Both the position numbers and the translations under genes were made by a program. This document shows positions 3,401-64,000 of a stretch of 64,000 nt of DNA, piece by piece. Each line of letters opens with the position of its first letter. Positions within the stretch are counted from its first letter, which is position 1. The notes under the pieces are model-generated. The model made no database searches, was not told the origin of the DNA, and was given only the letters and a program-made list of their open reading frames with translations. The stretch is taken from assembly GCF_036588685.1 (NCBI RefSeq), contig NC_086381.1, positions 41,788,001-41,852,000 on the forward strand. The letters run 5' to 3'. Source of the stretch: Mytilus trossulus. Lineage: Eukaryota.

Positions 3401-6400
3401 CGTTAAGATGTTGTCAGACCGTGTTTAGTCGTGTTCAGATTTTATTAATTTGGACAGAAAACGGGTAAAACTTTCCCAGTGTTTATCAGGGGTTGCTCCC
3501 CTTTTAAGAATAAAATTAAAAAGAAGACGGTTTATGTTAACTGAAAGTCTGCCATGTTTTAATTAAATAAAGAAAATAATCAATTCTAATTCATACCTCT
3601 TCCTATTTAATTATTTAACATTTTGTATATTAAAAAAAACCATAAGTGGTTCAAAGTCATACTGCTGCGCAAACCGTGGTGAATTGAGTTTAAAATCGAT
3701 TATTAGTGTACGTCCAGTTGCGTACATATAACATGTATGTCGGAACAATTGTGATGATGACGAATTTCTTCCTTTATTCGAGAACAATCTAATTGATATA
3801 TAAATGTCCATAAATGAGCCAAAGAAAGTTTTATATCGACCTGTATTTAAATCTCTTCTTCTTCTTTTGGTATACAATAGTCTTTCGACATTTGATGATT
3901 ACATACTGTTGGCATACGTGGACTAGTCTACTACATGTAACAAAACTTTTACCCCAATTCACACAAAATGTATGTTTCTTTCTTATGTACAATGTATACA
4001 TGTATATATTTGAATTTGCGCTATAGTTCCGTAACTTTTTATCCTGGCGTATATACGAATGGTCGACAAGTGCGTACATTTTTTTTAATCAAAATTTCTG
4101 GTATAGTCTGATCTGTCCTTCACCATTGACAAAAAATATATATATAGATTTTTATTTCATCAAATCTGTTGTTTATTTTTAGGTATTATCTATATTTTTT
4201 ACATCAGAAATGTTATTCATAAACAAGCGTATGAGTTTAGTAATGACTAGTATATAACAGAGAGCAGAATAAAAAAGGAAAAAACCAATTTTCCTCTTTT
4301 TTCACTCTAATTTCTGACAAGTGCAATTAGAGGCCAACATAGGACAAGAACGTAATAAATTTATTCTATAACCCTTGTATTTGAGAAAAAATCATGAAAA
4401 ACAAAGACAATTCTGTAAAATTAGTATTTATTTGATGCATTTCAAAATAAATTTATACTGAATTCTACACTTTACTGTCCATTTTCATTCAACTCTCCGT
4501 GAATGATGCAACTTAGAATAAATTTATTCTAAATGCATGATGCTTTCTGTATATAATCATTTATAAAATAAATTTATTATAAAGAGCCTTGATATCTATT
4601 ATCAGTTCAAGAAAATCATAGAATAAATTTATTCTACATTTAATGTCATTTATGATTTTATAACAATATTTAAAATAAATTTATTTTGAAAGTCCAGTAA
4701 TCTGTATGGTGAGGTTGAGACACAGAATGAATTTATTCTATGTTCAATATTATTTTTGTCTTGTATAATAATATATAAAATAAATTTATTCTGAAAGTAC
4801 AGTTATCATATTAAGGTGGCGACACAGAATAAATTTATTCTACATTCAATGTGGATTAAAAGTTTTATGATAAATAAAATAAATTTATTTTGATAGTCCA
4901 GTAATAATGTTAAGGTTGAGACACAGAATAAATTTATTCTGGTTATAAAAATATGTAAAATTTGTTTAGGAAAAATTACACTGATCTGTATGATTACATC
5001 AGGCTACAGAGAATAATTTTATTTTAAATTAAACCAGCGGCGTTTTTGATAATATTTGATATGTTCACATAATAAATTTACCATGGCACTACATTTAGGT
5101 CATAGAAAAATGAGTTCCTATATAATTTTCTATCTTTCATGTCTATTCAAAGACATATAACATTCATAAAAAAGTATTTTATATTATTTGAAGTTGCAAT
5201 CTGACAATACAATACAATACATATATCTGCTATCAACAATGCAAAAGGACACTCCCTTGAAATATGAAAATATCAATTTCTTCAGCTGATTTTTTTTATG
5301 TGGGACTGAATAGAAATACTGTGCAGCAATTTTAAAAAACAAAATATCAACATATAAATGTAAATAAACAGATTAGAAATAGTAATAGTTCAACAGGTTT
5401 TTCTTAAATTGAAAATAAATCTGTTTTTTTTAAACATGTCTCTCTCTGTAGATGTACTAGCTGCGGAATCGTAGCTCTTTAGGTCCTTTTGTAATTTTTT
5501 GACTATTTACGGTCCGCAAATAGTCAAAAAATTACAAAAGGACCTAAAGAGCTACGATTCCGCAGCTATAGATGTACGTGCTATGAATTGTCCTTTTTCT
5601 GGCTTCTGGATAGGCCTGATCTGAAAGAAGTAACGACAAATTCAAAACAATTTCAAATATTTTTAGTTATCATACCAAAATTCATTATATTTGATGAAGA
5701 AACTGCCCGTCTTTCTTTTAATCTAAATCATGATGTCTATTTTGTTTACATTCACTCTCTTTATTGTCATTTATAACAGTCTTGCTCCGTGTTAAAATCC
5801 GTACTTTGACCTACAATGATTTACTTTTATTTATTGTGACTTTGATGGAGAGTTGTCTCATTGGCACCCATACCACATCTTTATATATATATATATTGCC
5901 TCTGGATACAGCAAGATAAAAATGGCTATGCTATGCACTTGAACAGTAATTGTTGATTTTTTATACAAAAAAGGGATTAACGTACACAGTAACTCATTAA
6001 ACTTTTACTATTTAAAAGTCAACACTCTATCAAATTAAAATCTCATTATTACATACCTAATCTCAATCTTCAGAAACACTGTATAAGTCAGGACTGAATA
6101 AAAATCTAGTCTTTTTTGCTGGTGTTTCATAACATTTTTCTCACCCTACAAGAAATATTTTGAAGTTTAAAATGCAGAAACACTTACTCTATTATCATGG
6201 TTATTGTTTTTCTTCAGGCATATTTCTTTATTTTTATCAGAATTGGCATGAATCGTTCCCAACTTCCTGAATATGCATGTAATATTTGTCATTAGACATT
6301 CAGCCAGTCATGACCAATCAATCAATCAATCAATCAACCGTAGAGTCTTAAAACAGATGAATGGTTCATGCCTAGGAGACAGCGAACTGAAGACACAAAT

Positions 6401-9400
6401 AACAATTAAAAACAGGTTTCATTAAGTCTTAAACAAAACACAAGACTGGTGTTGACCATACTTTTACCTACACCATTCAACATACCAGAAAACAAGTAAG
6501 ACATGTTCCAAAAAAGAACAGCAGCTTCCACAGGCAAAAGTATGAGTAATGTACTTATTGTTTTCATGAACTTTAGCAGACTGTCTGATTGACCGTTAAC
6601 TTTAATGTATGATGCAGCTGTGTTTTAACTGTAATCATTTCTAATTAGAACCGCACAATTAATTTATGTTTCTGTTTGTTTATATTCTGTTCCGATACTT
6701 GTGATCTGGAGATGAATGCAATGGATTTGACGCGACTGTCATACAAGTGTGAGGTTTAGCTAGCTATATAACCAGGTGTAATGAACGCAATACTAAACTC
6801 CAAATTGTACCTAAGAAACTAAAATTAAAAATAATACAAGACTAACAAAGGCCAGAGGCTCCTGACTTGGGACAGGCGCAAAAATGCGACGGGATTAAAC
6901 ATGTTTGTGAGATCTCAACCCTCCCCTATACCTCTAGCCAATGTAGAAAAGTATACGGATAACGATAGGCATTTAAAATACTACTATAGCAGTTAACTGA
7001 CAAACAAGAGGCCCCAGACTTCAATTAAACTGATTGAAAGATTATGTCTCCCTCTCGTTAGGGATTTAGTATCATTAGTATAATTCTTTTATGCTGTAGC
7101 TGCAATTCCGTTCCCTTTTCACGCCGATGTGACCCACCGAATATTACCGGGTTTGTAATAACATGACCAATACGACGGGAAACACGTGGAGTTCTTTTCG
7201 TTAGGGGTTTAATATATTGATTGAATATAATTATCAGTTTTCACGACAAAAATCTTAGATTCTCTCTTGCATTCCGGCTTTCTCCACCTTTACAGTTTGA
7301 TCACCACGAAATGAACAATATAGTGCTGAAAGTTACGTTAACATCTATATTTCGGTTTTATCACCCAGACTCAAGGTATAGGGTTTGAAGATCTGTTGGA
7401 AAAAAGCAACCGTTCCTAATCACAATGTTCATAATCAAAATAATGTTTTACTTTGAATACATGGAAGGCAAGGCCTCACAAGTACGAGGGTCAGGATGTG
7501 GTCAAATTTACACCATTTTTCTCTTACTATTCTTTCTATTTTTTCATCATTCTCTTTTCTGTAAACCCCCATCCACAGCCTCAGGTATAGACGAAGTGTC
7601 ATTTATGTGGCCTGGTCTAGTAATGTCAGCAGTGTGATCTGCACATATATCATTTTGTAGAAAAAGATGAAGGGGTGGCGTTAAACATTGTTTTGATGTA
7701 AGATATGATACATCTTTTCTATAAAATCGATTGATTGACAGATTGTTGGTTGCTGAACGTGCAGTGTCAAATAGTTTATGCATGCATGCACGGAACGAAA
7801 AGCTATTTTAAAACATTACATACCATGGGGAATACCTGTAATAAAGGGTAGACCAGGATGAAGTTCGGTAAGCTTTTTATACGGGTTTTACATTTTTCTA
7901 CTTGGCGGATGAAGACAATTCTATTCCCAAGTCACGTTTAAGTGTCCATGAAATCAGCAGCACCCATACATATATATATATACCTACTTTCCAATCTATT
8001 AAAACAAATAAAAGACCTTAAGGATAAGACAAAATGGTACACATTCTCAAATGCCTATTTATCGGTAATAATACTTGAGGGTCTTGTTGGATAGTCACGC
8101 GACTGGGAAACGCAGAATAAAGAACAAAACATATAGCATATACAACAAAATATAAAGAATAGAAATTAAAAAGATGATCAAATAGAGAATAAGGAGCAAA
8201 ATTATAAAAATAGAAAAAAAATGTTTTAAAAATTAAAAGAATACAGAATCGATGGACCATCCATCCAGACCATTATAATTTTGTAGTTGTCCATTTTTGT
8301 TTAACATATTATTTTATTTGAATGATATAAAATGACCATACATTAATAACCTCTATGAAATGACACAGATTCAAATAATTTACAACCTTCGATTTGTTTA
8401 ATTCATGTTAGCAAACAAGTGCCGCATATCTATCAGAAGTTTTAAAATAATTATTACTTATTACAACAAACGCGGCTTAAAAGCCTTATCAATTTTATGT
8501 AATGCACGCGTACGTTGATTGTAGGCCCCCTAGTGTTACCACACGCCGAGAAGTCTTCAAATGGAAACACAAGATAATTAATGACAAGACGTAGGACACT
8601 TAAACTGGACCCCTGCTGTGTTCACTTATCGCTACACTGACGGTGCGAAGCTATAGAAGGAACGACGAACCAGTTTACAGGACAATGATCTGTAATTTTG
8701 TATAATATGATCACTTGGTATTTCTCTCTATGTACGTGAAAGATGAAAGACAAGTGGACATCAAAAGGAGGAAAGACAAATTGAACATAGACGGGATAGG
8801 TTTCCAGTTTCGTTTATGAAACATTCATCACAGTTCAAGAAATTAGAGGTTAGTTTTGCTCAGTATACTAGAGGTGGGGTTAGGGGTGGGGGTCAAGGAT
8901 ACTGGGATCTCCTCATGGATTCCCGACATATATGCTCAATGCATACTAGACATTTTACAAGTCTCTGCTTATGCCCCTTTTCAAATCCTCGATCGATCCG
9001 CATCTGCGAATCAATTTGCATAATTCTTTACGATAGCACTGAATAAGAATAATATCGATCACTCCAAAATAAACGAGAACAATTTGGAATATAACATTTA
9101 TGGAACAAATTGACTATACTACTCTGATAATTTGTTATATCACTAAGATAAATTTATATACTACAAGTGTGGACACAGATCAGTGTGGATTGTATGTTTG
9201 GATGTTTGACAGTGTTTTGTATGACAAAAGAAGTTGTGTTTTCCCCGTTGGTTTCTATATTATTAAATATGTTGTATAATATGACAACCAACCTGATCAT
9301 TAGCAGAGTTGTTTTTTATTTGATATTTAGTTTTTTTATGTTCAAGACGGGCATAAAAGAGCTCGAGACACTAATTGCATCAGTTACCAAATGATTATGT

Positions 9401-36400: not shown

Positions 36401-39400
36401 CATCATGCACATGACAATCCAAAAAACTTACTTCGTTACAGGTACCAAAACGATAATGTAAACCCATGCAAACGAGAAAACTAACGCCCTAACTAATGTA
36501 CAATGCAGACATAACCGAAAAACAAATATGTTACATTTCAACAAACGAAAGCCACTGAATTACAGGCTCATGACTTGGGACAGGCACACGCATACAGAAT
36601 GTGGCGGGGTTCAACATGTTAACGGTATCCCAAAAGACTTCCTAACCTCGGACAGTGGTGTAACAGTACAGCATTAATATGAGGTTTTCTATTTCTATTT
36701 CTATTGCAATATCTAATCAAAACTCATCCTTTGTAAAGCACTTTTATCTATTATACCATAGACGAAATAGGAAATATTGCTTTTTCGTAAAGGATTGATA
36801 TATTTTCATTCGAATTGTGATGATTTTTTTTTTAAATTTTGACCTGCGTTGAATTCCTGAGACAGATATTTAAAAACACATAACATGTGTGTCACCTTTT
36901 CTGTTACATCCGCTGATATCATAGGAGGATTTGAACATTTGGCAACACATTGGTGGTAAGGCTTTATAAGATCCCACTGAAAAGTGTAGCTTTGTGAATG
37001 TGTCTTTCCTTTTAATGATACTGTTATGTTGCGTGAAGCCTCTCTATCAATATACTTCAAATATCCTCCACTCTTCAATGTCCATTTGAAAGTCAATCTA
37101 TGATAAATAAAATTGAAATATCCGTGTAGATCTTTCAATCAGTTTCAAAAAGTGAAAAGAATTATTTTGTAGGATTTCTCAAGGTAAAGAAGGAATGGTT
37201 AAAAGAACATAGTAGTAATTTGACAAAAGACGTGAAACTAGTTCTTATAAAACGTTGACATAGTCAATATTGTAATTTAATACACGTTTAATTCAAACGA
37301 GTCAATTTATTAATTTCCTTACCTGTAACCATGCCGTTTGTCCCAAGCTGCTATATCAACTGCCTTGTTTGGTTTTTTTCTGTTGCAGTGTGCATGTAAT
37401 AATGGGTTGTTTCTACTGTTAAAGCAAGTAAAACTGCGTACTTCAGTGGTATGACTACCACCTAAAATATACAATCACTAACTTATGTAACATGTTAAAG
37501 TTTGTTTGGAAAAATGATGATAATAACTATAGGATGTTATGAATAAATAAAGGCAACAGTAGTATACCACTGTTCAAAACTCATAAATCCGTGGACAAAA
37601 AACAAAATCAAGGTAACAAACTAAAACCGAGGGATGACATTTATGAGCCTGTGTCCCTCCCTTAGGTATATGTGCATCATACCCTACATAGTCGTTGATC
37701 CAAAAGGGGGATCTGGGTGTTGAAACCCTTTTTTTGGACGACCAATACATTTGAAATATGACATGGGTTGAGAATCCCATTGTGGACTAGAGTAGAATGC
37801 ATGACAAAAATATCTTTTTAGTTATTCGTGTATTGCTAATCACTTTTCTTGATTACAATTTATCTCTATCTTCTTCAGTGTTTTGCCCAAAATACAAAAA
37901 AAAAAAGGGTGAACTAAATTCTATAAAGACTCTATTGGCGATCTTGGTAAACAAATATAAATTTTGTCTTTAATTTTTAATATCTAAAAACTCTATCTAT
38001 TTGTCAAATATTGGTAAATTTGTAATTAAAAAGCCTAATTATTTTGGTCCTATTGACTTTTTCGTAGATCTAGTCTTTGATCATTTTCGCTATCTAAAGG
38101 GGCTTTCTTTCTAAAATATTTTTCAAGATAACAGGCATAATGCTAGAAATGGATTAAAGTAGGCACAAAAGCGCAATTACTTGAATAAGGAGTGAACTGA
38201 CGATTTCGGCCAGTAAACTTATTTGTTGATCTTAACAGGCTCCTGACTTAGGACAGGTGTATTAAAATGAAGCGAGTTAAAACGTTATAACAGGTGCCAA
38301 CCCTCACTCTAAATAGAGACAGTAGTGCAACAGTACAACATAAAAAGACACACTGTTAAGCATCAATTGAAATTACTTAACTCGATAAAAAAGAACATGT
38401 TAACAAAAACAAGTAAACAAACACTGAAAGAATAATTTTCATCTATGACAAATTATAAATACAATATTAACATATAAATGTATGTGCGCATATAAAATAT
38501 ACATGTAGTAACAAAAAGTATAAACGATGAGTGACAGTTTATCTTTTTCTATTATAGTTTTGAAGGATAAGACATAAAGACAAATGAGTTATACAAATCG
38601 TAATTAAAGGGCAATAAAAAAGTTCTATTGCATGTATGCATAAAATATAATTTTTAAATAGTACTATTCGTGACAAATGAGCATTAACTCCGAAACAAAG
38701 TAATCATTAATGGACACTACATAGACACCATCATTCTGAAGATGTATGCCGCTGTCAGATATTCTCTATTAATATCAGTTTTCAAGACAATAGACACAAC
38801 TTGCAATTTACCCCTATATTCAATTGTCATCCATGTCTTTCATGTTGTTCGGCAAACGAATTCACCGGACAAATTTTCTAAATAAGTTACCCTAGTGATT
38901 AATGTGGCCTAGCTTGGTAAGATTTGGTTATGTATCTGTAGTTTTCTGATTAAAGAGTAGTTGAGTTTTCTAAAAGTTTACGACGGACGACGAACGCCAC
39001 ATGAAGAGAAATTCTCACTTTGCCTTTTGGACCTTGTGAGCTAAAAATAATTAACCAAATAAGTAGTAAATAATAAAAATAATCATAAAGTACTATTTTT
39101 TAAGGCTAAAACGTTTCGTGTTTTATGCATAGGTATTATAACGATAAAAATGTGTAATTAACAAGACTTGTCGATTTTGCTATTAATTAAGGTATGATAA
39201 CTTTGATAGAAAAGTAAAAGGTTGTTGGTTGTTTTATGTAAACAAAAATATGAGACTCACGCGCATTTTCCGCAGGATTCAATAAATAAAAAAAAATGAC
39301 ATTGAAAAATGCATTACTGGTAACTCACAAAGAACTGATAGAGGAATTAATTGTGGTCTCGTGCCAAAAGGAACAGAAAAGGACAAAAGTGACATTATCA

Positions 39401-48400: not shown

Positions 48401-51400
48401 TGTATCATTGGCCACATCTTCTTTTAATATTATTATAACCCTGGCATATTCAATATGTGCCTATCCCAAGTCACGAGTCTGTAGTTTAGTGGTTGTATTT
48501 TGTTCATGTCCGTAATATTTGTTTTTCTTAAATTGTTTTGTAATTAATTAGACCGTAACTCAACTGAATTATTTCTTATTTGTTTTATGTTGGGGCCTTT
48601 TATTGCAAACTATACGGTTTAGATTTTTATCGGTGTTGACGGCCGTACGATTGATTGCTTATAATTGCGTAAATTATCTTCATTTGAACGTTTGTTGATA
48701 GTTGTATCAATATTATTTTAAAAAGAATCAAAAGCATCAGACAGTTGTCGGAGTTTATTTTAATATACTAGGATTAATAGGCAAAGGTTAGCCTGATTAT
48801 AATCAAATTATTGTCCTGGAACATTATGTTCAACTGGAAAAGCATTAAGAAACATATCATTTGTGACTGTATCTGGCGCAGTAAAATTGTGGTCCCATTC
48901 ATGCCATAACTACCACTTTTGTCAACATAAGCTTTCTCTGTTTGATGGGATGAAAGAATGATAAACAAACAAATATTTAAGAATTGAAAACTGTGATTTA
49001 TTATTAAAATGACGACGAAGCAACACAATGAAAAACATGTATAATGAAATCAATAAATCATATTTATAAACAACATACTTAGTATATTGTTATAATGACA
49101 AAACCTTATAAACCCATCCCATCAAAGATAGGGTTACATTCGCCCGTCAGAGATGGTGTTACATTCATCCTTTTTAATAAAAAAAAATAGCATTTTTGTC
49201 AACACAGGCATGCTCTGTTGGATGGGACGAAAGAATGGCAAAAAACAAATATTTAAGAATAGAAAACTGTAATTTATTATTTAAATGACGAAGAAGCAAC
49301 ACAATGAAATACATGTATAATGAAATCAATAAATCATATTTATAAACAACATATATGTTTATAATGACAAAACCGTATTGACCCATCCTATCAAAGATGG
49401 GGTTAAATTCGCCACAATATTGTTACCCAAAGCCTTCCTTGTAACAATATTCCCAATCCAAGCCAGAAACAAAGTCCTTACTACCAAAAATAAGAAAAAC
49501 AAAAAAAAATCAAAAAAGAAATCACAAATCTAAGGAAAGCTACTTCTATCTAAGAGTATTCATTCTCTAAACTCAAACTTTCCCATGATTATAATATACT
49601 AACAGATTGTCAAGAAACATTTTTCTTTTAAATGGCTGCCAGAGGTCCTTGTCCCCATGGCAACCAAAGCCAAATATATACATAAACTTACACTAAAAAT
49701 TATAATTTTATTGTATTTTATTTATTTATATTATTATTCGTATATCTAGTTTTCATTTGATTTAATTTTTAATTTATTTTGATCCAGTAAAAATCTTTTG
49801 TATCTGTGATAAACATTTTTAACTGCTTAGTTTAACTTCTTGAAAGATAACAGCATCACCCGCATAGTTTATTACAGTGGGTGAAATAAATCAACAATCT
49901 TTATGATTTGTTTTATAAATAGGCAAATATGGTATAAAATTGTATGACCATGGTTTCAAACATAAATACTTCATTTTATTATGCATTAAATGATCCTCGA
50001 AAATAATGGTAGCAATTGATTGTATTTCTTATAATTATCTCAACTTAATCATATAGAGAACAAAATAAAACCGATCTAAATAAAAAAAATAAACAAAAAC
50101 ACAAAAAAAAAAAAAAAATTATCACAAATCTAACAAATACAAAAAAATACAAAAAAATCAAAAACAAAAAAACAAAATACAATACAAAAAACATAAAAAA
50201 AAAAAAATAAAAAAAAAAAAAAATAAAAAAAAAAAAAAAAAATCAAAATAAATTGCCGTTAGCATGGTTAGTCTTAAAAAGGATTGAAAATTAAGAGGCC
50301 CATGTCCCAATTACATTTCGTAATCACAGTTACCAATATAGATACAGTTAAAAATGAGTATCAACTATATTTTCATCAAAGTTATTACACTCTCATACAT
50401 GTAATGAAAATACACTTCACACGAAATAACATTTACAAATTAAATCAATATCATACATTTGAGGAAAAATCAGGGTAAACAAAAAGTACACAAAAACAAA
50501 AGTTGTGAATTTCTTTACCTTTTGTACACATACCTGATATTATTAAAAGAATAAACCACAAAAAACAACCTTAATCTAAACATGATCACCCGTTTATTGC
50601 ACAGTGGCAAGAACAAGGAACCCTTCAGTGTATTTCATGAAAAGAATAGCTTTGTGTCGTATCAGAGGTCCATATCCCTATTAAACAACATCAAAACACA
50701 TAAAACAGATTCAGATGTTAAGAACTGGTATCCGAATATATTTTTTGAATGCATCTGATTGTCATCTTCCCATTAACTGAATGTTATCACTTGAAATGCC
50801 CATCATAACTGCTAAACGTTCCTCAATCCTAAAACTATGTCCTTTATACACGCGGTATCACATCCAGCCCATTGTAACAAATGTTGTAACCGGCGTGTAA
50901 AATACTGCCTAGGAATAAGTTTACCAGCCATAAAACAAAATAAATGACCATTTTGAATCCCCCCTCAACTTGCAATATTCCCAGACCGCATGCACTGGAC
51001 ATAAATCTACATTTTTAACATTACACAGTTACAGTTAATTTGAAATTTTTCTATTGGTGGAGTAAGAATCGGCGTTCTCGTGTTTGGATTGTTGGCAATC
51101 CCTCCTGCTGTGGTCTCCGCCGCAAACCTGGCAGGTGTGTTCATATCTACAAATTATTGCTATTCAGCCTGATTCATTGTTCAAAGCATAACACAACCTT
51201 TTTTTATTACGGGCTTAAGCCGTGAGGCTTTGTGTAAGAAAGGGCTGTTTCATGGTATTGGTTTTCATCATAAGCCCGATAGCTAACACCTCATTGAACA
51301 ACTCTCCATTTACTCCATCCCATGGTTAGTGCAAAGGGTCTACTTCCCTCCACTGCCTATATGCCTGATCATAAAAAAATGCAGCCTCAATTCCAGCTTT

Positions 51401-54400
51401 TTCTGCCAAGTTTGCAATGATAGCCGCATATTTCATCAACTTCGGGGATTCAGTCGGGTGTTTTTCAAAATAAATTGCATCCTAAATGCGAAAAGTCTCA
51501 TGCCACTGTGCCATTGACTCACTTTTTACCTTACTTCTTCTATTCTTAACAAATGTTAAACAATCATCCTTCTCTACTGGAACACACTTAACAACTATTT
51601 TAAAAAATCCTCCAGATTAGTGTATTTGTTAGACCAAATATCAGCTTTCAGTTTTGGGTCCACACCCAAAGCCAGTGGGCGTGATAAACCCTGGTTTTGT
51701 ACTTCGTTTGAAAATGTACCTGTGTTGGAGTGCCATGTACAAGATGGTTCACCACCTGTTGACTCGGAGATCCTTCAGTTGGCATGAAACACTGTTGACC
51801 CTTCTGCTAATAACATTTGAACAGGACGGATGACTGCTCTCAGATGATTGGTTATCCATAATATTTGTTGAGTGGGACTGGGATGGTGTCGTCATCTCTG
51901 TTGTATTACATGTACTGGTATCTTTCCTTGGTGGACAAATGGAATTAACACCTTGGTGTGTTGGTATCAAAGTTGTATCTGGTGAGATTACATCCCTGCC
52001 TTGAATAACACCAGTGCTTTTGAGGATTGTCCACAGGTCTGGTCAAAAGCAGACCTGTCCTCAGGTCTGGTCAGGAGCAGACCTGTCCACAGGTCTGGTC
52101 TGAGGCAGACCTGTCCTCAGGACTGGTCAAAAGCAGACTTGTCCACAGGTCTGGTCTGGGGCAGACCTGTCCGCAGGACTGGTCAAAAGCAGACTTGTCC
52201 ACAGGTCTGGTCTGGAGCAGACTTGTCGATAAGTCTGCAGCAGTCCTAAAAAAGCAGACCGTAGGTCTGGTCCACCAACGACGAAGTTAACTTGCTTGAC
52301 TGCTTAAAAATTCTCAAGTTAACTTAGAAAGCAGTCAACAAGTTAACTCTAAGTTAACTTTTGTCAAGGTTAGGACCGCACCCATCTGTAACTACTGTTT
52401 GGGTGATAATTGGAGTTGCGACCGTCAATATTCTCAGAATTTGGTCATCATTATACGTATTTGGATCAATTGGATTGGACTGTACATGTTGATTATCAGC
52501 TGACAACTGGCTAGAATTATTATTTGGATTTGAAGAGCTTGGTACAGGATTGTCGATAGGTACACCCTTTCCCATATCTGAACTGCCTATGTTTTACATT
52601 ACTTCTCCAAGCCTCTGTGTGCTTTTCCGTTTCCGTTTACTTCTTTTAGGTACTTTGGATGGCATTTCTGATAAAACGGTTGCTGGAAAAAGAACACAAA
52701 ATATATTGAATGCGTGATATAGAACTTCCATATCAAAATAAGTGCCATAAGAACATTTTGAACATATTTATATGATCTGAACTTCTCTTTTCTGTGTGTG
52801 TTGCCACTTCGGTGTTGTGTCGTTGTTCTCCTCTTATATTTAATGCGTTTCCCTCAGTTTTAGTTTGTTACCCCGATTTTGTTTTTTGTCCATGGATTTG
52901 TGAGTTTTGAACAGCGGTATACAACTGTTGCCTTTATTTATACCATATATACTCTTTACCCTTAAATTCATGTAAGTGCCGTGTGCACTAATTCTAAATA
53001 TCATATTTTATCAACCATGTATACTTATACCCTTACATTCATGTAAGTGCCGTGTGCACTGATTCTTAATATTATATTTTATCAACCATGTATACTTTAT
53101 ACCCTTAAATTCATTTAATTGCCGTGTGCACTGATTCTAAATATTATAATTTATCAACCACAACAGAATTGATATAAGTACCCTAAGCACTGCCCATCAA
53201 AGCACCATTTGTACTAGAGCGTCACAAATTTATCAAAATGCTATATGCACCCACCATGCATACAAATATGAACTCAAGCACAATACAAGAGGCTGTCACA
53301 ACGACAGAAAACCGGATTTATTAGCATTTATTTGTGTCCTGGCAATATCACAAGAACCATTACTGATGATTGGTGAAAGTGAAAATTGTCAATACCAAAT
53401 TTGACCTCTATTTTGTCATCAGTATCAACATATTAAAATTCGAAAAGCTTAGATTGAATGGTTTGTGAGTAAATGCAACAACGTGAATGGAAACACCATT
53501 TTACGATCTTTCAAGAACCATAACTCCTGAACGGTAAAAGTCAAAATCGTCATTATTGAACTTGACCTCTATTTTGTCATCAGTAACAACATATTAAAAT
53601 GTGAAAAGCTTTGGTTGAACGGTTCATGAGAAAATGCACGGACGCGACTGGAAACACCATTTTTCAATCTTTAAAGAACCATAACTCCTGAACTGTAAAA
53701 GTCAAAATCGTCATTATTGAACTTGACCTCCATTTTGTCACCAGTAACAACATATTAAAATTTGGGAAGCTTTGGTAGAACAGTTCATGCGTAAATGCAC
53801 GGACACGACTGGAAACGCCATTTTTCAATCTTTCAAGAACCATAACTCCTGAACGGTAAAAGTCAAAATGGCCATTATTGAACTTCACCTTCATTTAGTT
53901 GTCAGTAACAACATATCAAAATTTTAAAAGCTTTGGTTGAACGGTTCTTGAGTTAATGCACGGACAACATTTGATTGCCGCCCGCCCGACCGCCCGCCCT
54001 GCCGCCCGCCCGCCGAGCATCCCCAATTTAATAACCGACATTTTTGTCACAAAAATCCGGTTAAAAACTATATAAATGCCATATGGGCATTGCCCATCAA
54101 AGCACCATATGTACTAGAGCCTCATAGATTCAGATGCGCTTGTATTAAGTATATAAATGTATCCAAGTACACCATTTATCTAAGTGGCTCATCAAAGCAC
54201 CATTTGTACAAGAGCCTCATAAATTCATGTAGGTGCCATAACACCTGTTTAATTTAAGTACACAATGTATCCAAGTAAATTTTTTTTGAAAAATAGAATA
54301 AAAAAATAATCAAATTATATACATGTGTCATATGCACTATTAACTAATAAATATGTGAATTCTAATTACAATGATTCTTGATGAAAAAGTCTACATGTAT

Positions 54401-57400
54401 AATGTTACACTCATAATAAAACTCAAGAAGGAGGTTTCAGCTCTGTTAATATACGCAGTTCTGTTATCAGTATTTAATTGCCCACCTAATTTGCTATAAT
54501 GAGGATTGTTAAATAGATTTCTCTAAGTTGTTTTCATGAACCTTATCAGACTGTCAGAATGACCGTTGAAACTAATGTAATATGCAGCTGGGTTTTAATT
54601 TGTTAGGGATAAGGTTGTTAAATAGTTTTATATAATTGTTTTTATGAACATTAGCAGACTGTCTGAATGACCGTTAAACTTGATGGATGATGCAGCTGTG
54701 TTGTAACTATCATGACCTTCTATTACAAGCCGTATAGTTTATGGGTTTGTTTATTTATCTTCAGCCCTTATGTGTGATCCCGATTTGATACAAGCACGCG
54801 AGAAAGTATCCAAAGAATATAACGTGTTCTGTTATAAAACAAACTGTTGGGATATGGCACTCCGGTTAAAGACCCTAGTTTTAGTATAATTATTATTGAA
54901 ACAAATCATCCTGATATAATATACCATAGCTACATAAAACTATTTGTGGCACATAATACCCAAGTTATACCTCCAGTTTTGAAAGAAACTGAAGCTTGGC
55001 TCGTATTGTTCTGTACAAGCATGTTTATGGGGAATTGCCCTTAGACTTAATATAGCTTTTAACACATAAATAAATAAAAAAGAAACTGTTCAATACTTAA
55101 CTGCTAATAACTTCCTTCTACTCCATAGCTTGAATAATTGACCCTCTTATATTTCGAAAATATTTTGGCATGCCAACATCATAGTTAAAGTGAACACCAT
55201 CCATATAGTTATTGCGATCCGAATTTTTCACTCCTGTTATTTTCCAGTAACGATAATGTTGTTGGTCCTTTATTTGTGATTTAAAAAATCTGTTAGTCTT
55301 AATAACTAAATAATTATACACATTTGATGTAATGACTCGTGTCGATTCTCTTGGTAGAAGTTGGCATTTTGTTACTGACTTAATTTCAATTAGGGTTGTC
55401 AATGTTTGGGATAATCAAATCAGCTGTAAACCCAATTCCTCTGTCGTATCTTCAGAGGCTCCTAAAATATCCAAATCGTTACCACCAATGTAAACAATTA
55501 CATGTTCGGGACAATTTTTTTCTATGAAAGACAAAATATAGATCTGAATTTGAAACTTTTCCGCCGCCGATCCCAAGACATTTTACCTCACAGTTTATCA
55601 AGTTGAAATTATGTAATGCATGTCTATCATAAATGAAAGTTCCCAATCTACGAGCGTATGAACTGTCAATTACGACAATTTGCATCGTTAAATTATAGTT
55701 TTCTTATTAAACTATAATTCTATTCTCTGGTGCGTCAGCTGACCAAAATCACTCACTGGATCTAATACAATATTCTCTGGATACTTTTTCTTGTACTTAT
55801 GTAGGAACCGTTCCGTGAAAAGTAATTCAAAAAACCTTTCAATAAAACAAGACTACAATGTTCTCTAAACTATGGAAATCTCAAGCAGGTAGATGCAAAT
55901 TACGACAGATTACGGACATATAAATTACAATGTCAAATAACATATTAAAGTTACCTAATTTTCTACAGAATATAATCCTTTTCCTTCTTAAATCACAATA
56001 TAATCGTATTATTTAAAACACAAATTTCGCAAAATGTAATATAATTTTTTAGTTTCAAAATTTTCCGGCCACTTATTTTTTTTTTTAAATTGATACTTGT
56101 TTATTCCAAATATTTCCTGTTTACAATTTCCTCAGTTGCCCAGGAGGCAAACTGTGGATTCCCGTTTACATTTAAACCAACTGTCCGGGAAGCAGGAGGC
56201 TGAAAAAAGTGCACTGAATTATCAGAAAAAAATAGTATACATGTAATATTGCTTATATTCTTTTATATGACAATGAGTGAAAAAGAAATATTTTCATAGA
56301 ATGTAATACTAGTGGTAAATAATATAACATTATAAAAACATAAACGAGTGCACCTATAAACCAGATTTACATAACATTTTAACATAATCGAGTGCATCTT
56401 TAAACCATGGATTACTGTAGTCAATATAAATTAAAGAGATATAAAAAAAACAACAGACAACATGACTGCTATCTCCTGCAAGGTATTTACTTATAGAATG
56501 AAATTAATTAATGTATTATTCGATAAGTAACAGGGCACAGATTTCAGATGTGTTATCATGTATGATTTCCAAAGATTTAAAATATATGTAGCGGACATTC
56601 TTATCCCATCATATTTAATTTTGTTTCTTATTTTCCACAAGGACCATTTTGTCAAAATAAAAAAGAGATTTACAATTTTGGTTCGAGTGACCACTGCTAT
56701 CTCCCAAAAGCATAAACTGTTTTAAATTTTCATCATCTAATTGAATATTCCATAATGTAAAAATATCTTTGATTTTTCTAATGATTAATTTTGTTGTATT
56801 GCCATCGAAAAATAAATGTTGCAGATTTTCAGTATTATTTGCAGTTTGGCAAATATGACATTTTCCGTTTGACAATTGCATTTGTTTAAGTCTACTTTCC
56901 GTATATATGATATTGTGAATGCATTTCCATTGAAATTCTCTCATTTTATTGGTGATTTTAACTGTTTTCAAATTGCCCCATACTATTTTCCAATTAATTT
57001 TGTGGCCATAAAATTTTTGCCATTTAAGTTGACATTTTGGATATATATTCTTATTAATCATGTCTCGAATATGTTTTAGTTTTAATTCTTTTGGTTTGAT
57101 TGTTTTCCCAAATCTGTCTTATATAACCATTTCTTTAGAAAGTTTCATTCTAGTATGTTTGGTTTTTTATTAATTTCATAATCAATTTCTAAAATTTGTA
57201 AGAAGTCAATTAGTATTGCACTTTTAACTCTTGAAAATTCCGATATGCAGTTTCTTTTATCTACAAGTTTTTCAAATATAGAACAACAACTATTAAAATT
57301 GTTGGTTTCTACATTCCATATATGTCTTTGATATATTTCATGTTACATTTGTACTATTTAGAAAGGAAGAAAAAAACAATCGTTTATTTTGAAATAAAAT

Positions 57401-62022: not shown

Positions 62023-62603
62023 TAACAATAGAAACCAAAATTCCGAAAGAAATATTGGTGACTTAGAAAAGGAGGAGGACTTATTTCAGCTCCAGACGGA
62101 GTCTTTAAATAACCAATCTATAACTTCAAATACTACAGAAAACATTGACAATGCCCGTTATATACCAGAATCAAATACAAAACCAAATGTGGAACCTTAT
62201 ACTTCAAACACTGATGAAACGCAAAGGGTAAGTTGTAAAAAGTAATAAGAAAACTCTTTAATCTTGGAGGGCTTCAACTAAAGTATTACAGTATTTCAAT
62301 GTAAAATTTAATGTTTAACATTTTTAGATTGAGTGTAAAGTCCAACGATCATTATGAACAAAAACGTTATTAACAAAAAATTGTAACTAATTTTTAAAAA
62401 CAGATTTATTCTAGTCCTGCATGATAAATATTTATAGTTACACAATATGAAATGTTTTTATCTTATTATCTATTCAATTGCAAATAAAGGCAGCTAGAAT
62501 TAATTAAAGGATATTCGTAAACCATCTATTGAACTATTTAAGGATTTTCAAAGTCTTCCCGTTACTAAGATAATACTTTACCATTAGTCATTGATAATAT
62601 ATA

Positions 62604-63940
62604 TGTCGTGTACAAGTTGCGATTTTGTACAGGTTATAACATGTACAAAAATATTGTACATGTTATAACTTGTATAATGCAAAAATACAAGTTATAACAT
62701 GTACAAAAGTACCTCATACATGTTATAACCTGTACAAAATATTGCTTAAAAATGGTTTTAACTTGTACAAAATCAAAAAATAAGGATATTTTTCTATTAT
62801 AGCAACAGTTGATATTGACCTCAATAACATTTTCATAACTTTTTTATTATTCCTTCATGTTGGTGTGCTTTGTCCTTTTTTGATACAGTAAATGTCCAGG
62901 GGTCGGTACTACGAAGCATTCTTAAGACTTGTCATAAGATATATCTTAGGACATGTCTAATGATCCTCTTATGACTTTTTATGGACATATCTTTATTTGA
63001 TGAATTATAATTGTGAGTGTCCACTTTGAAGGCAATAGTAAAATACTTTCATTCAAGTTGACACTTAAAGACATAAGAGGATGGCCAGGATAGATGTGTC
63101 TTTAAATAAAATTGGGAATTGAAATGGGATATGTGTCTAAAAGACAACAACCCGCCCATGGAGCAGACAACATCCAAAGGCCACAAATATAAATGCTTTC
63201 AAAGTAAAGGATATATATTTTAAAACATCGAAATGACATTTGCCTCATGCAATGATCTTATAGGTTATAAACAAAAATTGAGTTATAAATTTACATAAGT
63301 TATGCTGAAGGCCAAAAATGTTGAAGAGTATAAGATCCAAAGATATTGATAATGAAGCGTGGTCCAATGATAACTATCTCAGCTGTCTCTTGCTTTTACA
63401 GAGTAAGCATATAAGACCTTGTTTTAGTCTTTGCATGCTATAAAATCGAGAGGGAGGAGTATTTCCCAAAATTATTAGGAATCGTTCTTAAATGTTTTGG
63501 AAGAATTTAGTTACTAGTAACTTATGTAATTGTCATTGAGGAATGCAAGCTTTTAGTAAATAGTTTCACATTTATTTCAGCCCTGATGGACTGCATAAAA
63601 CACACAATTACATGAAAACACATTTTGCCAACATAAGTCCTGAGACATATTTTTTAAACTTTGTTATCATTGTCCACTACAAAAAAAGACACGTTCTGGC
63701 CTATTTATTATTGTTCTTTATGCATTGGTGAATTTAAATGAATATTTTACTTCATTAAGATTTATTTTAAATTTTGTACAAGTTAAAACCATTTTTCAGC
63801 AATATTTTGTACAGGTTATAACATGTATGAGGTACTTTTGTACATGTTATAACTTGTATTTTTGCATTATACAAGTTATAACATGTACAATATTTTTGTA
63901 CATGTTATAACCTGTACAAAATCGCAACTTGTACACGACA
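62604..63940. mobile_element. 1.34-kb non-autonomous Ginger-type element
   Basis: TGT...ACA termini, ~170-bp near-perfect TIRs built of gttataac/tgtaca palindromes, 4-bp TSD TATA. Confidence 0.88.
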
Positions 63941-64000
63941 TATATAAGACAAAGTGTGAACTGGTACAAAAGTATTTATCAAATCTTATAGGCAAAAGAG

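Follow-up and report, generated by a model that had tools for sequence, protein, structure and literature searches.

The window considered here is a stretch of 64,000 nucleotides of Mytilus trossulus DNA (NCBI RefSeq assembly GCF_036588685.1, contig NC_086381.1, positions 41,788,001 to 41,852,000 of the forward strand), and all coordinates without a contig name refer to it. Its minus strand carries a tyrosine recombinase (YR) retrotransposon with an SGNH hydrolase gene placed upstream of gag. The minus-strand order SGNH, spacer, gag and YR, as given in the original prediction, was confirmed: SGNH starts with its ATG at 55685 and stops at 55118, the ATG of gag lies at 52665, and a YR remnant (51022-50711) ends with the stop at 50711. 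Equally correct was the statement that no hydrolase follows the YR, for tblastn with two SGNH queries matched 55685-55121 alone in the 64 kb. The element does not end at 50711, however, as had been assumed; it continues for about 1.8 kb, to ~48900. The depth in the DNA run X1 stays at the family level past the YR stop up to 50260, which is the limit of the mapped stretch. Because a duplicated terminal-type repeat was found after the YR, the element appears to span ~56070 to ~48900, with the repeat pair behind the YR. The features, in the direction of the element, are the following.

56615..57118, minus strand: separate flanking element, 3' end of ORF2 of a long interspersed nuclear element (LINE; zf-RVT, PF13966, E 2.5e-8), not YR
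55686..56070, minus strand: 5' non-coding region; 5' boundary uncertain (~56050-56075), adjoining a higher-copy repeat at its poly(A)-like end
55949..55955, minus strand: weak candidate splice donor AG|GTAACT, crossed unspliced by record 15 of X18
55751..55757, minus strand: candidate splice donor CA|GTGAGT, 71 nt ahead of the SGNH start codon; same site in L001
55118..55685, minus strand: SGNH hydrolase gene with a frameshift near 55540 and an internal TGA; other copies are intact, with an open reading frame (ORF) of 191 aa
52684..55117, minus strand: SGNH-gag spacer with short internal tandem repeats and AATAAA at 54755
53284..54063, no strand: later insertion, high-copy TA-flanked element with 161-bp tandem repeats; empty-site joint depth 580, insert depth ~500,000
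52789..52941, no strand: later insertion, very high-copy short repeat; loose ends 52789-52813 and 52938-52941, joint 52772->53085
52683..52698, minus strand: candidate splice acceptor, 17 nt ahead of the gag start codon
51047..52665, minus strand: gag with a C-terminal Cys/His motif; stops, frameshifts and a 359-bp insertion
52028..52386, no strand: later insertion inside gag with 28-bp tandem repeats; empty-site joint 52027->52387, depth 314
50711..51022, minus strand: C-terminal third of YR with HSFRI and KKYIR motifs; 42% identity to residues 209-312 of the L002 YR
49414..50710, minus strand: 3' non-coding region with the motif CATGGGGA(T/C)AAGGACCTCT at 49660-49639 and a T-rich tract at 50078-50242
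49185..49413, minus strand: first 3' terminal-type direct repeat, 86% identical to the second copy
48908..49144, minus strand: second 3' terminal-type direct repeat, where the element probably ends; resemblance to L002 extends to ~48880

The window copy belongs to a multi-copy Mytilus family, is decayed and has suffered internal deletion. It is dead, each of its three genes being broken. Apart from frameshifts and three later insertions, it has lost reverse transcriptase (RT) and RNase H as well as the first two thirds of the YR; of a 312-aa relative (L002) residues 209-312 are kept and the first 208 gone, the missing part falling between 51047 and 51022. Pfam, applied to the broken pieces of the window, gave weak GDSL matches alone (E ~0.05) and none for gag or YR. 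The proteins closest to the window genes are those of Mytilus edulis, M. galloprovincialis, M. coruscus and M. trossulus. An X1 joint also links the end of gag directly to the end of YR (window 51049 and 50732, depth 228) and reflects a second deletion form, probably non-autonomous, which keeps gag and lacks RT and nearly all of the YR.

At the 5' end, the X1 depth is 674 at 55785-56005 versus 3591 above 56006. An RNA contig, record 15 of X18, aligns no further than 56049, and L001, a second copy of the Mytilus family, is collinear with the window from 55855 and matches 55855-54461 at 90% identity. The spacer had been described as repeat-rich and ~2.4 kb long. Its 2435 nt in the window agree with this, but ~1.1 kb of it is absent from other copies, where X1 joints skip 780 nt (53283->54064, TA..TA) and 312 nt (52772->53085); the family spacer therefore measures ~1.3 kb. 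Three stretches far exceed the family depth in X1 and show empty-site joints: 52028-52386, ~52789-52941 and 53284-54063. The very high-copy short repeat of 52789-52941 recurs in the window at 37543-37634. The motif CATGGGGA(T/C)AAGGACCTCT is found after the YR in five copies in L002 (4866-5492), in one full and two degenerate copies in the window, and in none of the 19 other contigs scanned.

The order of SGNH, gag and YR is a property of the family, beyond the window copy. In five of 18 NCBI Mytilus models the SGNH runs on into the same gag (VDI82127.1, CAG2229929.1, CAG2194528.1, CAG2207821.1 and CAG2232159.1, from two Mytilus species), and in none of the 18 does RT or YR stand in front. These are automatic gene models and as such evidence for physical linkage and direction, not for splicing. 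SGNH and gag carry consecutive accession numbers on three further contigs (CAG2194566/67, CAG2237031/32 and CAG2256184/85; direction unknown). P0035 comprises gag, RT and RNase H, P0044 extends from gag through the YR end. The X1 depth is similar (156-774) across the bins of SGNH, unique spacer, gag, YR and 3' region; some single X1 contigs have a depth of ~23. Among the 15 X1 joints listed (147 weaker ones exist besides), none connects the YR end to the SGNH start, yet this alone does not decide the order, since a long gap between YR and SGNH would give no such joint.

Relatives were found by a scan of GTDB, which led to L002, a contig of the bacterial metagenome-assembled genome G001 (Sedimenticola), in which retroelement contigs of animal type occur. 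It reads gag, RT and YR, followed after 1.76 kb by SGNH. Between L002 and the Mytilus family, identity is 39-42% for each of gag, RT, the YR remnant and SGNH. G001 is the GTDB representative titled Sedimenticola sp. isolate 2 TCF1. It yields 74 RT matches, 36 YR matches and LINE ORF1/ORF2 pairs, and appears to be heavily contaminated with eukaryotic high-copy repeats. We examined 51 whole contigs of G001, which cover 24 of the 26 with an SGNH match. Twelve are of YR type and carry the SGNH as a separate ORF: in seven it lies 50-330 nt behind the YR, which is the order of described Ngaro elements and is here called canonical, in four it precedes gag (L043, L045, L047 and L055; 677-1501 nt from stop to ATG), and L002 is the twelfth. 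The complete order gag, RT/RNase H, YR is present in L002, L043, L045 and L047. Relatives of the order gag-RT-YR-SGNH, named beforehand as a sign against an SGNH-first element, do exist in the form of the seven contigs, but their RTs and SGNHs fall into separate, well-supported clades. Partial contigs of G001 could not be joined by contig-end overlaps. Scans of IMG/VR with SGNH and with gag-RT gave no matches, a metagenome scan yielded one contig of 1413 bp, and a search of 301 genomes in the family of G001 added L090 alone. The latter (G244:C207:1-2132), from another contaminated genome, has a gag-like start, no RT or YR, and then a related SGNH; it is gag-first and internally deleted.

Where such an element begins and ends is best seen from its terminal repeats. 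Their position was taken as the test of gene order, because collapsed assemblies can read through a split repeat, which makes the linear order ambiguous. L047 contains a repeat of 409 bp in three copies of 100% identity (1-409 = 6606-7014 = 7141-7549), one before the SGNH, whose domain starts at 655, and two after the YR. In L045 a 441-bp repeat, again 100% identical, is found twice after the YR (6320-6760 = 6788-7228) and leads into the SGNH from 7445. The SGNH-gag spacers of both contigs are free of such repeats. Since identical terminal repeats lie between YR and SGNH, the element begins before the SGNH in SGNH-first L047 and L045. The canonical L052 and L050 have their repeats after the SGNH and before gag; L048, L049, L053 and L057, also canonical, show no such repeats. 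A GGGTGGG...CCCACC-TTTG-like motif marks the start of the repeat after the YR in L002, L043, L045, L046 and L047, with a variant in L051, and this motif places the ends of L002 between its YR and its SGNH. When the pattern A1...B1A2B2 of split repeats was looked for, L047 and L045 showed direct-repeat pairs after the YR plus a copy before the first ORF. Between the 3' copies lies a unique stretch, often starting with CCACCACC (L045:6761-6787, L047:7015-7140, L051:284-95, L052:6186-7443, L054:5746-5950); it occurs in SGNH-first and other elements and measures 27-190 nt in relatives.

A profile of the repeats of six relatives ranked window 49412-49268 and 49043-48989 first and second, with E values of 0.19 and 1.4 that are weak alone. 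The L002 repeat scored best of 850 window tiles at the same sites, and above 200 of 200 dinucleotide shuffles. Judged by these similarities, the window carries a homologous repeat pair after the YR. The 5' region of the window matches L047 weakly (5 of 200 shuffles score as high), which was not relied on, and downstream of the YR, window and L002 share no alignment apart from the short motif, with 32 of 200 shuffles reaching the same score.

The phylogeny of RT was inferred from a tree of 20 rows, from which distant RTs and short fragments were excluded and to which L055 was added. The RTs group with those of the canonical YR-SGNH elements of G001 (17 rows, 100/100 versus 3 outgroup rows). Within this group Mytilus pairs with L002 (99/99), and the canonical elements, including L056, form one clade (100/100); the base is not resolved. 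A quick first RT tree had contained a single SGNH-first clade with a Shimodaira-Hasegawa-like approximate likelihood ratio of 93. This clade is absent from the careful 20-row tree, and monophyly of the SGNH-first elements is not claimed. None of the 11 non-canonical rows has an SGNH directly after the YR, with L016, L055 and L008 having little or no sequence there. In the SGNH tree, the Mytilus and L002 SGNHs group together (96), apart from the canonical ones (99) and from the LINE ORF1 esterases (100), for which four of eight LINE contigs were confirmed by Pfam. The SGNHs of the SGNH-first elements are not themselves a well-supported group (82), and that of L090 takes an unsure position. The SGNH-first order would result, without any gene having moved, if the termini had shifted around the circular map.

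The family very probably has the order SGNH, spacer, gag, RT/RNase H and YR, with terminal repeats after the YR. How its gag is expressed is a different problem. A first ORF followed by a long spacer blocks scanning to a downstream gene, and because the SGNH ORF and the long spacer would do just this, gag needs either splicing or a promoter of its own. One promoter in the 5' repeat could produce a full-length RNA that would serve as template for reverse transcription and would have the SGNH as its first long ORF. If a donor that precedes the SGNH ATG were then spliced to an acceptor before the gag ATG, the message for gag, RT and YR would result. The sites proposed earlier, namely the acceptor ttctttttccAG with its end at 52683, 17 nt ahead of the gag start, and the donors AG|GTAACT at 55954 and CA|GTGAGT at 55756 upstream of the SGNH ATG, are indeed present. 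Two of the automatic Mytilus models (VDI82127.1 and CAG2229929.1) resume at the position of the acceptor 52683. A strict acceptor at most 20 nt from the gag ATG was seen in four of seven testable elements (window, L047, L055 and L046), as compared to 16 of 457 background ATGs (3.5%; binomial p ~5e-5) and to none of the three canonical elements L049, L050 and L052. In 4/4 cases GTRAGT occurs in the 420 nt that precede the SGNH ATG, with 0.11-0.15 expected for each. Over five SGNH-to-gag stretches the sole GTRAGT lies inside the SGNH ORF of L045, and the spacers have none (0/5). X21 reads over SGNH and gag all run in one direction, although sense and antisense could not be distinguished. Splicing that chooses between the hydrolase and gag/pol is thus a candidate based on motif statistics, and we rate it as rather probable. 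The same holds for the account as a whole, an SGNH-first family whose Gag would likely be made from a spliced RNA that skips the hydrolase. For a wider version of it the chances look about even: the elements would represent a widespread invertebrate lineage of Ngaro type with termini shifted on the circular map, the genomic RNA would be the esterase message, and Gag, RT and YR would come from the spliced RNA.

A number of observations weigh against this account. As to the gene order, the SGNH-first RTs form a polytomy in which no single clade is resolved, one clade of the 11 non-canonical rows not being rejected either (AU p 0.42), and the 5' copy of the terminal repeat was not found in the window (26 of 100 shuffles score as high). 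The B/A boundary of the split repeats was not located, and a unique stretch separates the copies. L090 of G244 has its gag-like start upstream of a related SGNH, and the contigs of G001 are probably collapsed consensus assemblies. As to splicing, L043 and L045 fail the strict acceptor rule (CAG 1 and 9 nt before the ATG, with a weaker tract), and L008 has no acceptor. L002 was omitted from the count as its gag start is uncertain; if included, the score is 4/8. Acceptor-like sites are seen in the canonical RT clade, too (strict in L056, relaxed in L050). The splice rule and the span of 420 nt were set after the sequences had been viewed. The positions of the donors are not homologous; in L002 and in L045 the donor falls within the terminal repeat, perhaps in the portion that occurs at the 3' end alone. 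No spliced joint is listed in the three RNA runs X18, X21 and X24, where a depth of 0-6 over the unique parts is too shallow for judging splicing, and the RNA contig of X18 (record 15) crosses the 55954 donor unspliced.

Of the rival explanations, the most serious one accepts the SGNH-first order and assumes two transcription units: the SGNH transcript would start in the 5' repeat and be polyadenylated within the spacer, while an internal promoter of the spacer, possibly left over from a former 5' end when the termini shifted, would drive gag, RT and YR; the acceptor would close a short local intron. The long spacers (677-1501 nt in relatives) with their tandem repeats would suit such a design, as would AATAAA in the spacers of the window (54755), L001, L045 and L047 and the acceptor-like sites that precede gag in two members of the canonical RT clade, L056 and L050. 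However, a local intron finds no GTRAGT in any of the five spacers, those of L043 and L055 are devoid of AATAAA, and replication still requires a full-length RNA across the spacer. We consider two units possible, yet unlikely.

Alternatively, the elements could be canonical gag-RT-YR with a long gap before the SGNH, and the link of SGNH to gag could result from a tandem array, a one-off permuted integration or read-through of the assembly. L002 reads gag-RT-YR-SGNH, L045 wraps around with a period of 7137 bp, the 5' end of the window copy is hidden by another repeat, and the Mytilus evidence does not comprise whole loci; all this would fit. It is countered by the identical repeats and the junction motif between YR and SGNH, the reverse of what is seen in L052 and L050. 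Moreover, upstream of the window SGNH there is a LINE remnant instead of a YR, the repeat pair follows the YR, and the SGNH-gag link recurs in five separate Mytilus models. A permuted or tandem integration, which the original prediction had put beside an undescribed architecture, is also not supported in view of the 39-42% identity of gag, RT, YR and SGNH to those of one relative, and the alternative as a whole looks improbable. The undescribed architecture, in turn, is supported by the five fused models and by the repeats of the relatives between YR and SGNH. Least of all can we believe that the SGNH belongs to an unrelated element that came to lie beside a YR element by chance, although the spacer is crowded with other repeats. 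Matching X1 depth over both parts, SGNH-gag links in two Mytilus species, four genes that are all ~40% identical to those of L002, and an SGNH outside the LINE ORF1 esterase group make this extremely improbable, barring misassembly of the gene models.

Among known systems, the Xenopus Ngaro elements DIRS-53_XT and DIRS-54_XT come closest. As far as the available passages of PMC9210276 describe them, they share overlapping ORFs for gag, RT/RNase H and YR, an SGNH in an ORF of its own, the lack of a methyltransferase region and terminal repeats after the genes that are direct, not inverted. In described hydrolase-bearing Ngaro elements, according to the same passages, the SGNH follows the YR, all ORFs overlap, and the hydrolase has 'no proven function'. 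Here, in contrast, the SGNH comes first among the ORFs, with 0.7-1.5 kb between it and gag, and the Mytilus sequence falls outside the canonical SGNH clade sampled. With the SGNH upstream of gag and none after the YR, the DIRS-53_XT subtype was excluded. Hydrolase-free Ngaro elements of Cafeteria (PMC8547959), fungi (PMC3783388) and amphioxus (PMC2632668) resemble the family in their gag-RT/RH-YR core and have split direct repeats of the type A1-[ORFs]-B1A2B2, a pattern that the family may share, but the main texts of these papers do not contain the word hydrolase (0 occurrences). From what could be consulted of them, PMC13465315 describes Ngaro repeats without a hydrolase, PMC7192593 and PMC6681497 mention a hydrolase without stating its position, and PMC3905857 and PMC5408684 deal with retroelement esterases. 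PMC6431247, PMC5718144 and bioRxiv 10.64898/2026.02.25.703748 contributed no further information.

The Ngaro-like core order (gag-like ORF, RT/RNase H, YR) is present in the family, the window copy being devoid of RT. Inverted terminal repeats and an internal complementary region, as in DIRS1-like elements, were not seen; self-comparison of relatives and of the region in the window revealed direct terminal-type repeats and no palindromes but short internal ones. Nor does a methyltransferase, as in DIRS1-like and PAT-like elements, seem to follow the RNase H, because the RT ORFs end shortly past it (P0035; 606 aa in L002, 594 aa in L043); this test rests on ORF length, as Pfam found no methyltransferase in control RT ORFs of 750-800 aa either. 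The family is probably a Ngaro element, but not of the described hydrolase-last subtype; its RT groups with unnamed canonical YR-SGNH elements. No SGNH-first YR element was found in the literature searched, the scope of which did not include Repbase, Dfam, supplements and the two founding papers. The SGNH-first order is probably new, although it may already be contained in a Repbase consensus or in the Xenopus supplement.

In retroviruses and LTR (long terminal repeat) elements, full-length and spliced RNA come from one promoter; Gag is made from the unspliced RNA, an accessory gene product from the spliced one. The scheme proposed here would likewise use one promoter and two RNAs, but with reversed roles.

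The 191-aa protein is, by its catalytic residues and predicted structure, a member of the SGNH/GDSL hydrolase superfamily. The window SGNH is 83-88% identical to the 191-aa Mytilus family. The catalytic serine (S9) and histidine (H168) are invariant in 55 homologues, and G41, N72 and D165 are at least 90% conserved. Its structure model has a flavodoxin-like fold with a predicted local distance difference test score (pLDDT) of 97.9, and the best Foldseek matches are PAF-acetylhydrolase and GDSL lipases (TM ~0.7). Pfam scores fall under the curated cut-offs. The SGNH profile collects 1898 representatives at E <=0.001 and matches the ORF1 esterase of ZfL2-1 (4c1b) with an E value of 1.5e-5. The ORF1 esterases of CR1/L2/RTEX LINEs (ZfL2-1, PDB 4C1B; PMC3905857, as far as available) are similar in having the SGNH fold and lying upstream of the RT gene. 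They differ in being a domain of ORF1p in a non-LTR element instead of a separate 191-aa ORF in a YR element, and those sampled form a clade distant from the Mytilus SGNH. The ZfL2-1 enzyme hydrolyses esters and binds to negatively charged lipids (PMC3905857), which makes it a model for the likely activity. By analogy, the 191-aa protein is predicted to be an active esterase acting on lipids or membranes.

An intact SGNH at the other end of the element, retained in Mytilus and in several families whose RTs are only 44-50% alike, suggests that the gene is required wherever it stands, and a small stand-alone SGNH is an enzyme open to assay. If the splicing is true, Gag would not be made from the RNA that is reverse transcribed, the reverse of the retroviral rule. 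This would matter for the selection of the RNA that YR elements package, and internally deleted copies such as that in the window would be easier to explain. If it fails, a gene-order variant is left, mainly of interest to transposon specialists. In either case, repeat libraries built on the canonical order will split SGNH-first elements.

Some minor observations may be added. M. edulis copies of the SGNH are named 'sucD' in NCBI and UniRef (CAG2198009.1, CAG2213937.1, CAG2256183.1, CAG2237031.1 and CAG2229929.1). P0103 (2341 aa) and P0168 (2373 aa), the longest matches among the representatives, have SGNH-like stretches near the C-terminus, six of them in P0103; as element fusions they were ruled out by Pfam. 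In L060:2-1150 an SGNH is fused to an RNA 2'-phosphotransferase (Tpt1/KptA, PF01885, E 1.5e-40) in one frame of 382 aa, and a 330-aa frame of unknown family follows. L086:2322-5123, L087:3-2660 and L088:3282-6134 are single ORFs of RT, RNase H and a C-terminal SGNH, and these SGNHs form their own clade. In the window itself, 6554-6696 is an isolated match (79-86%) to a 108-bp repeat region of the SGNH-gag spacer, and 62598-63946 contains an element whose inverted arms of 182 nt, 98% complementary, enclose 29-bp tandem repeats.

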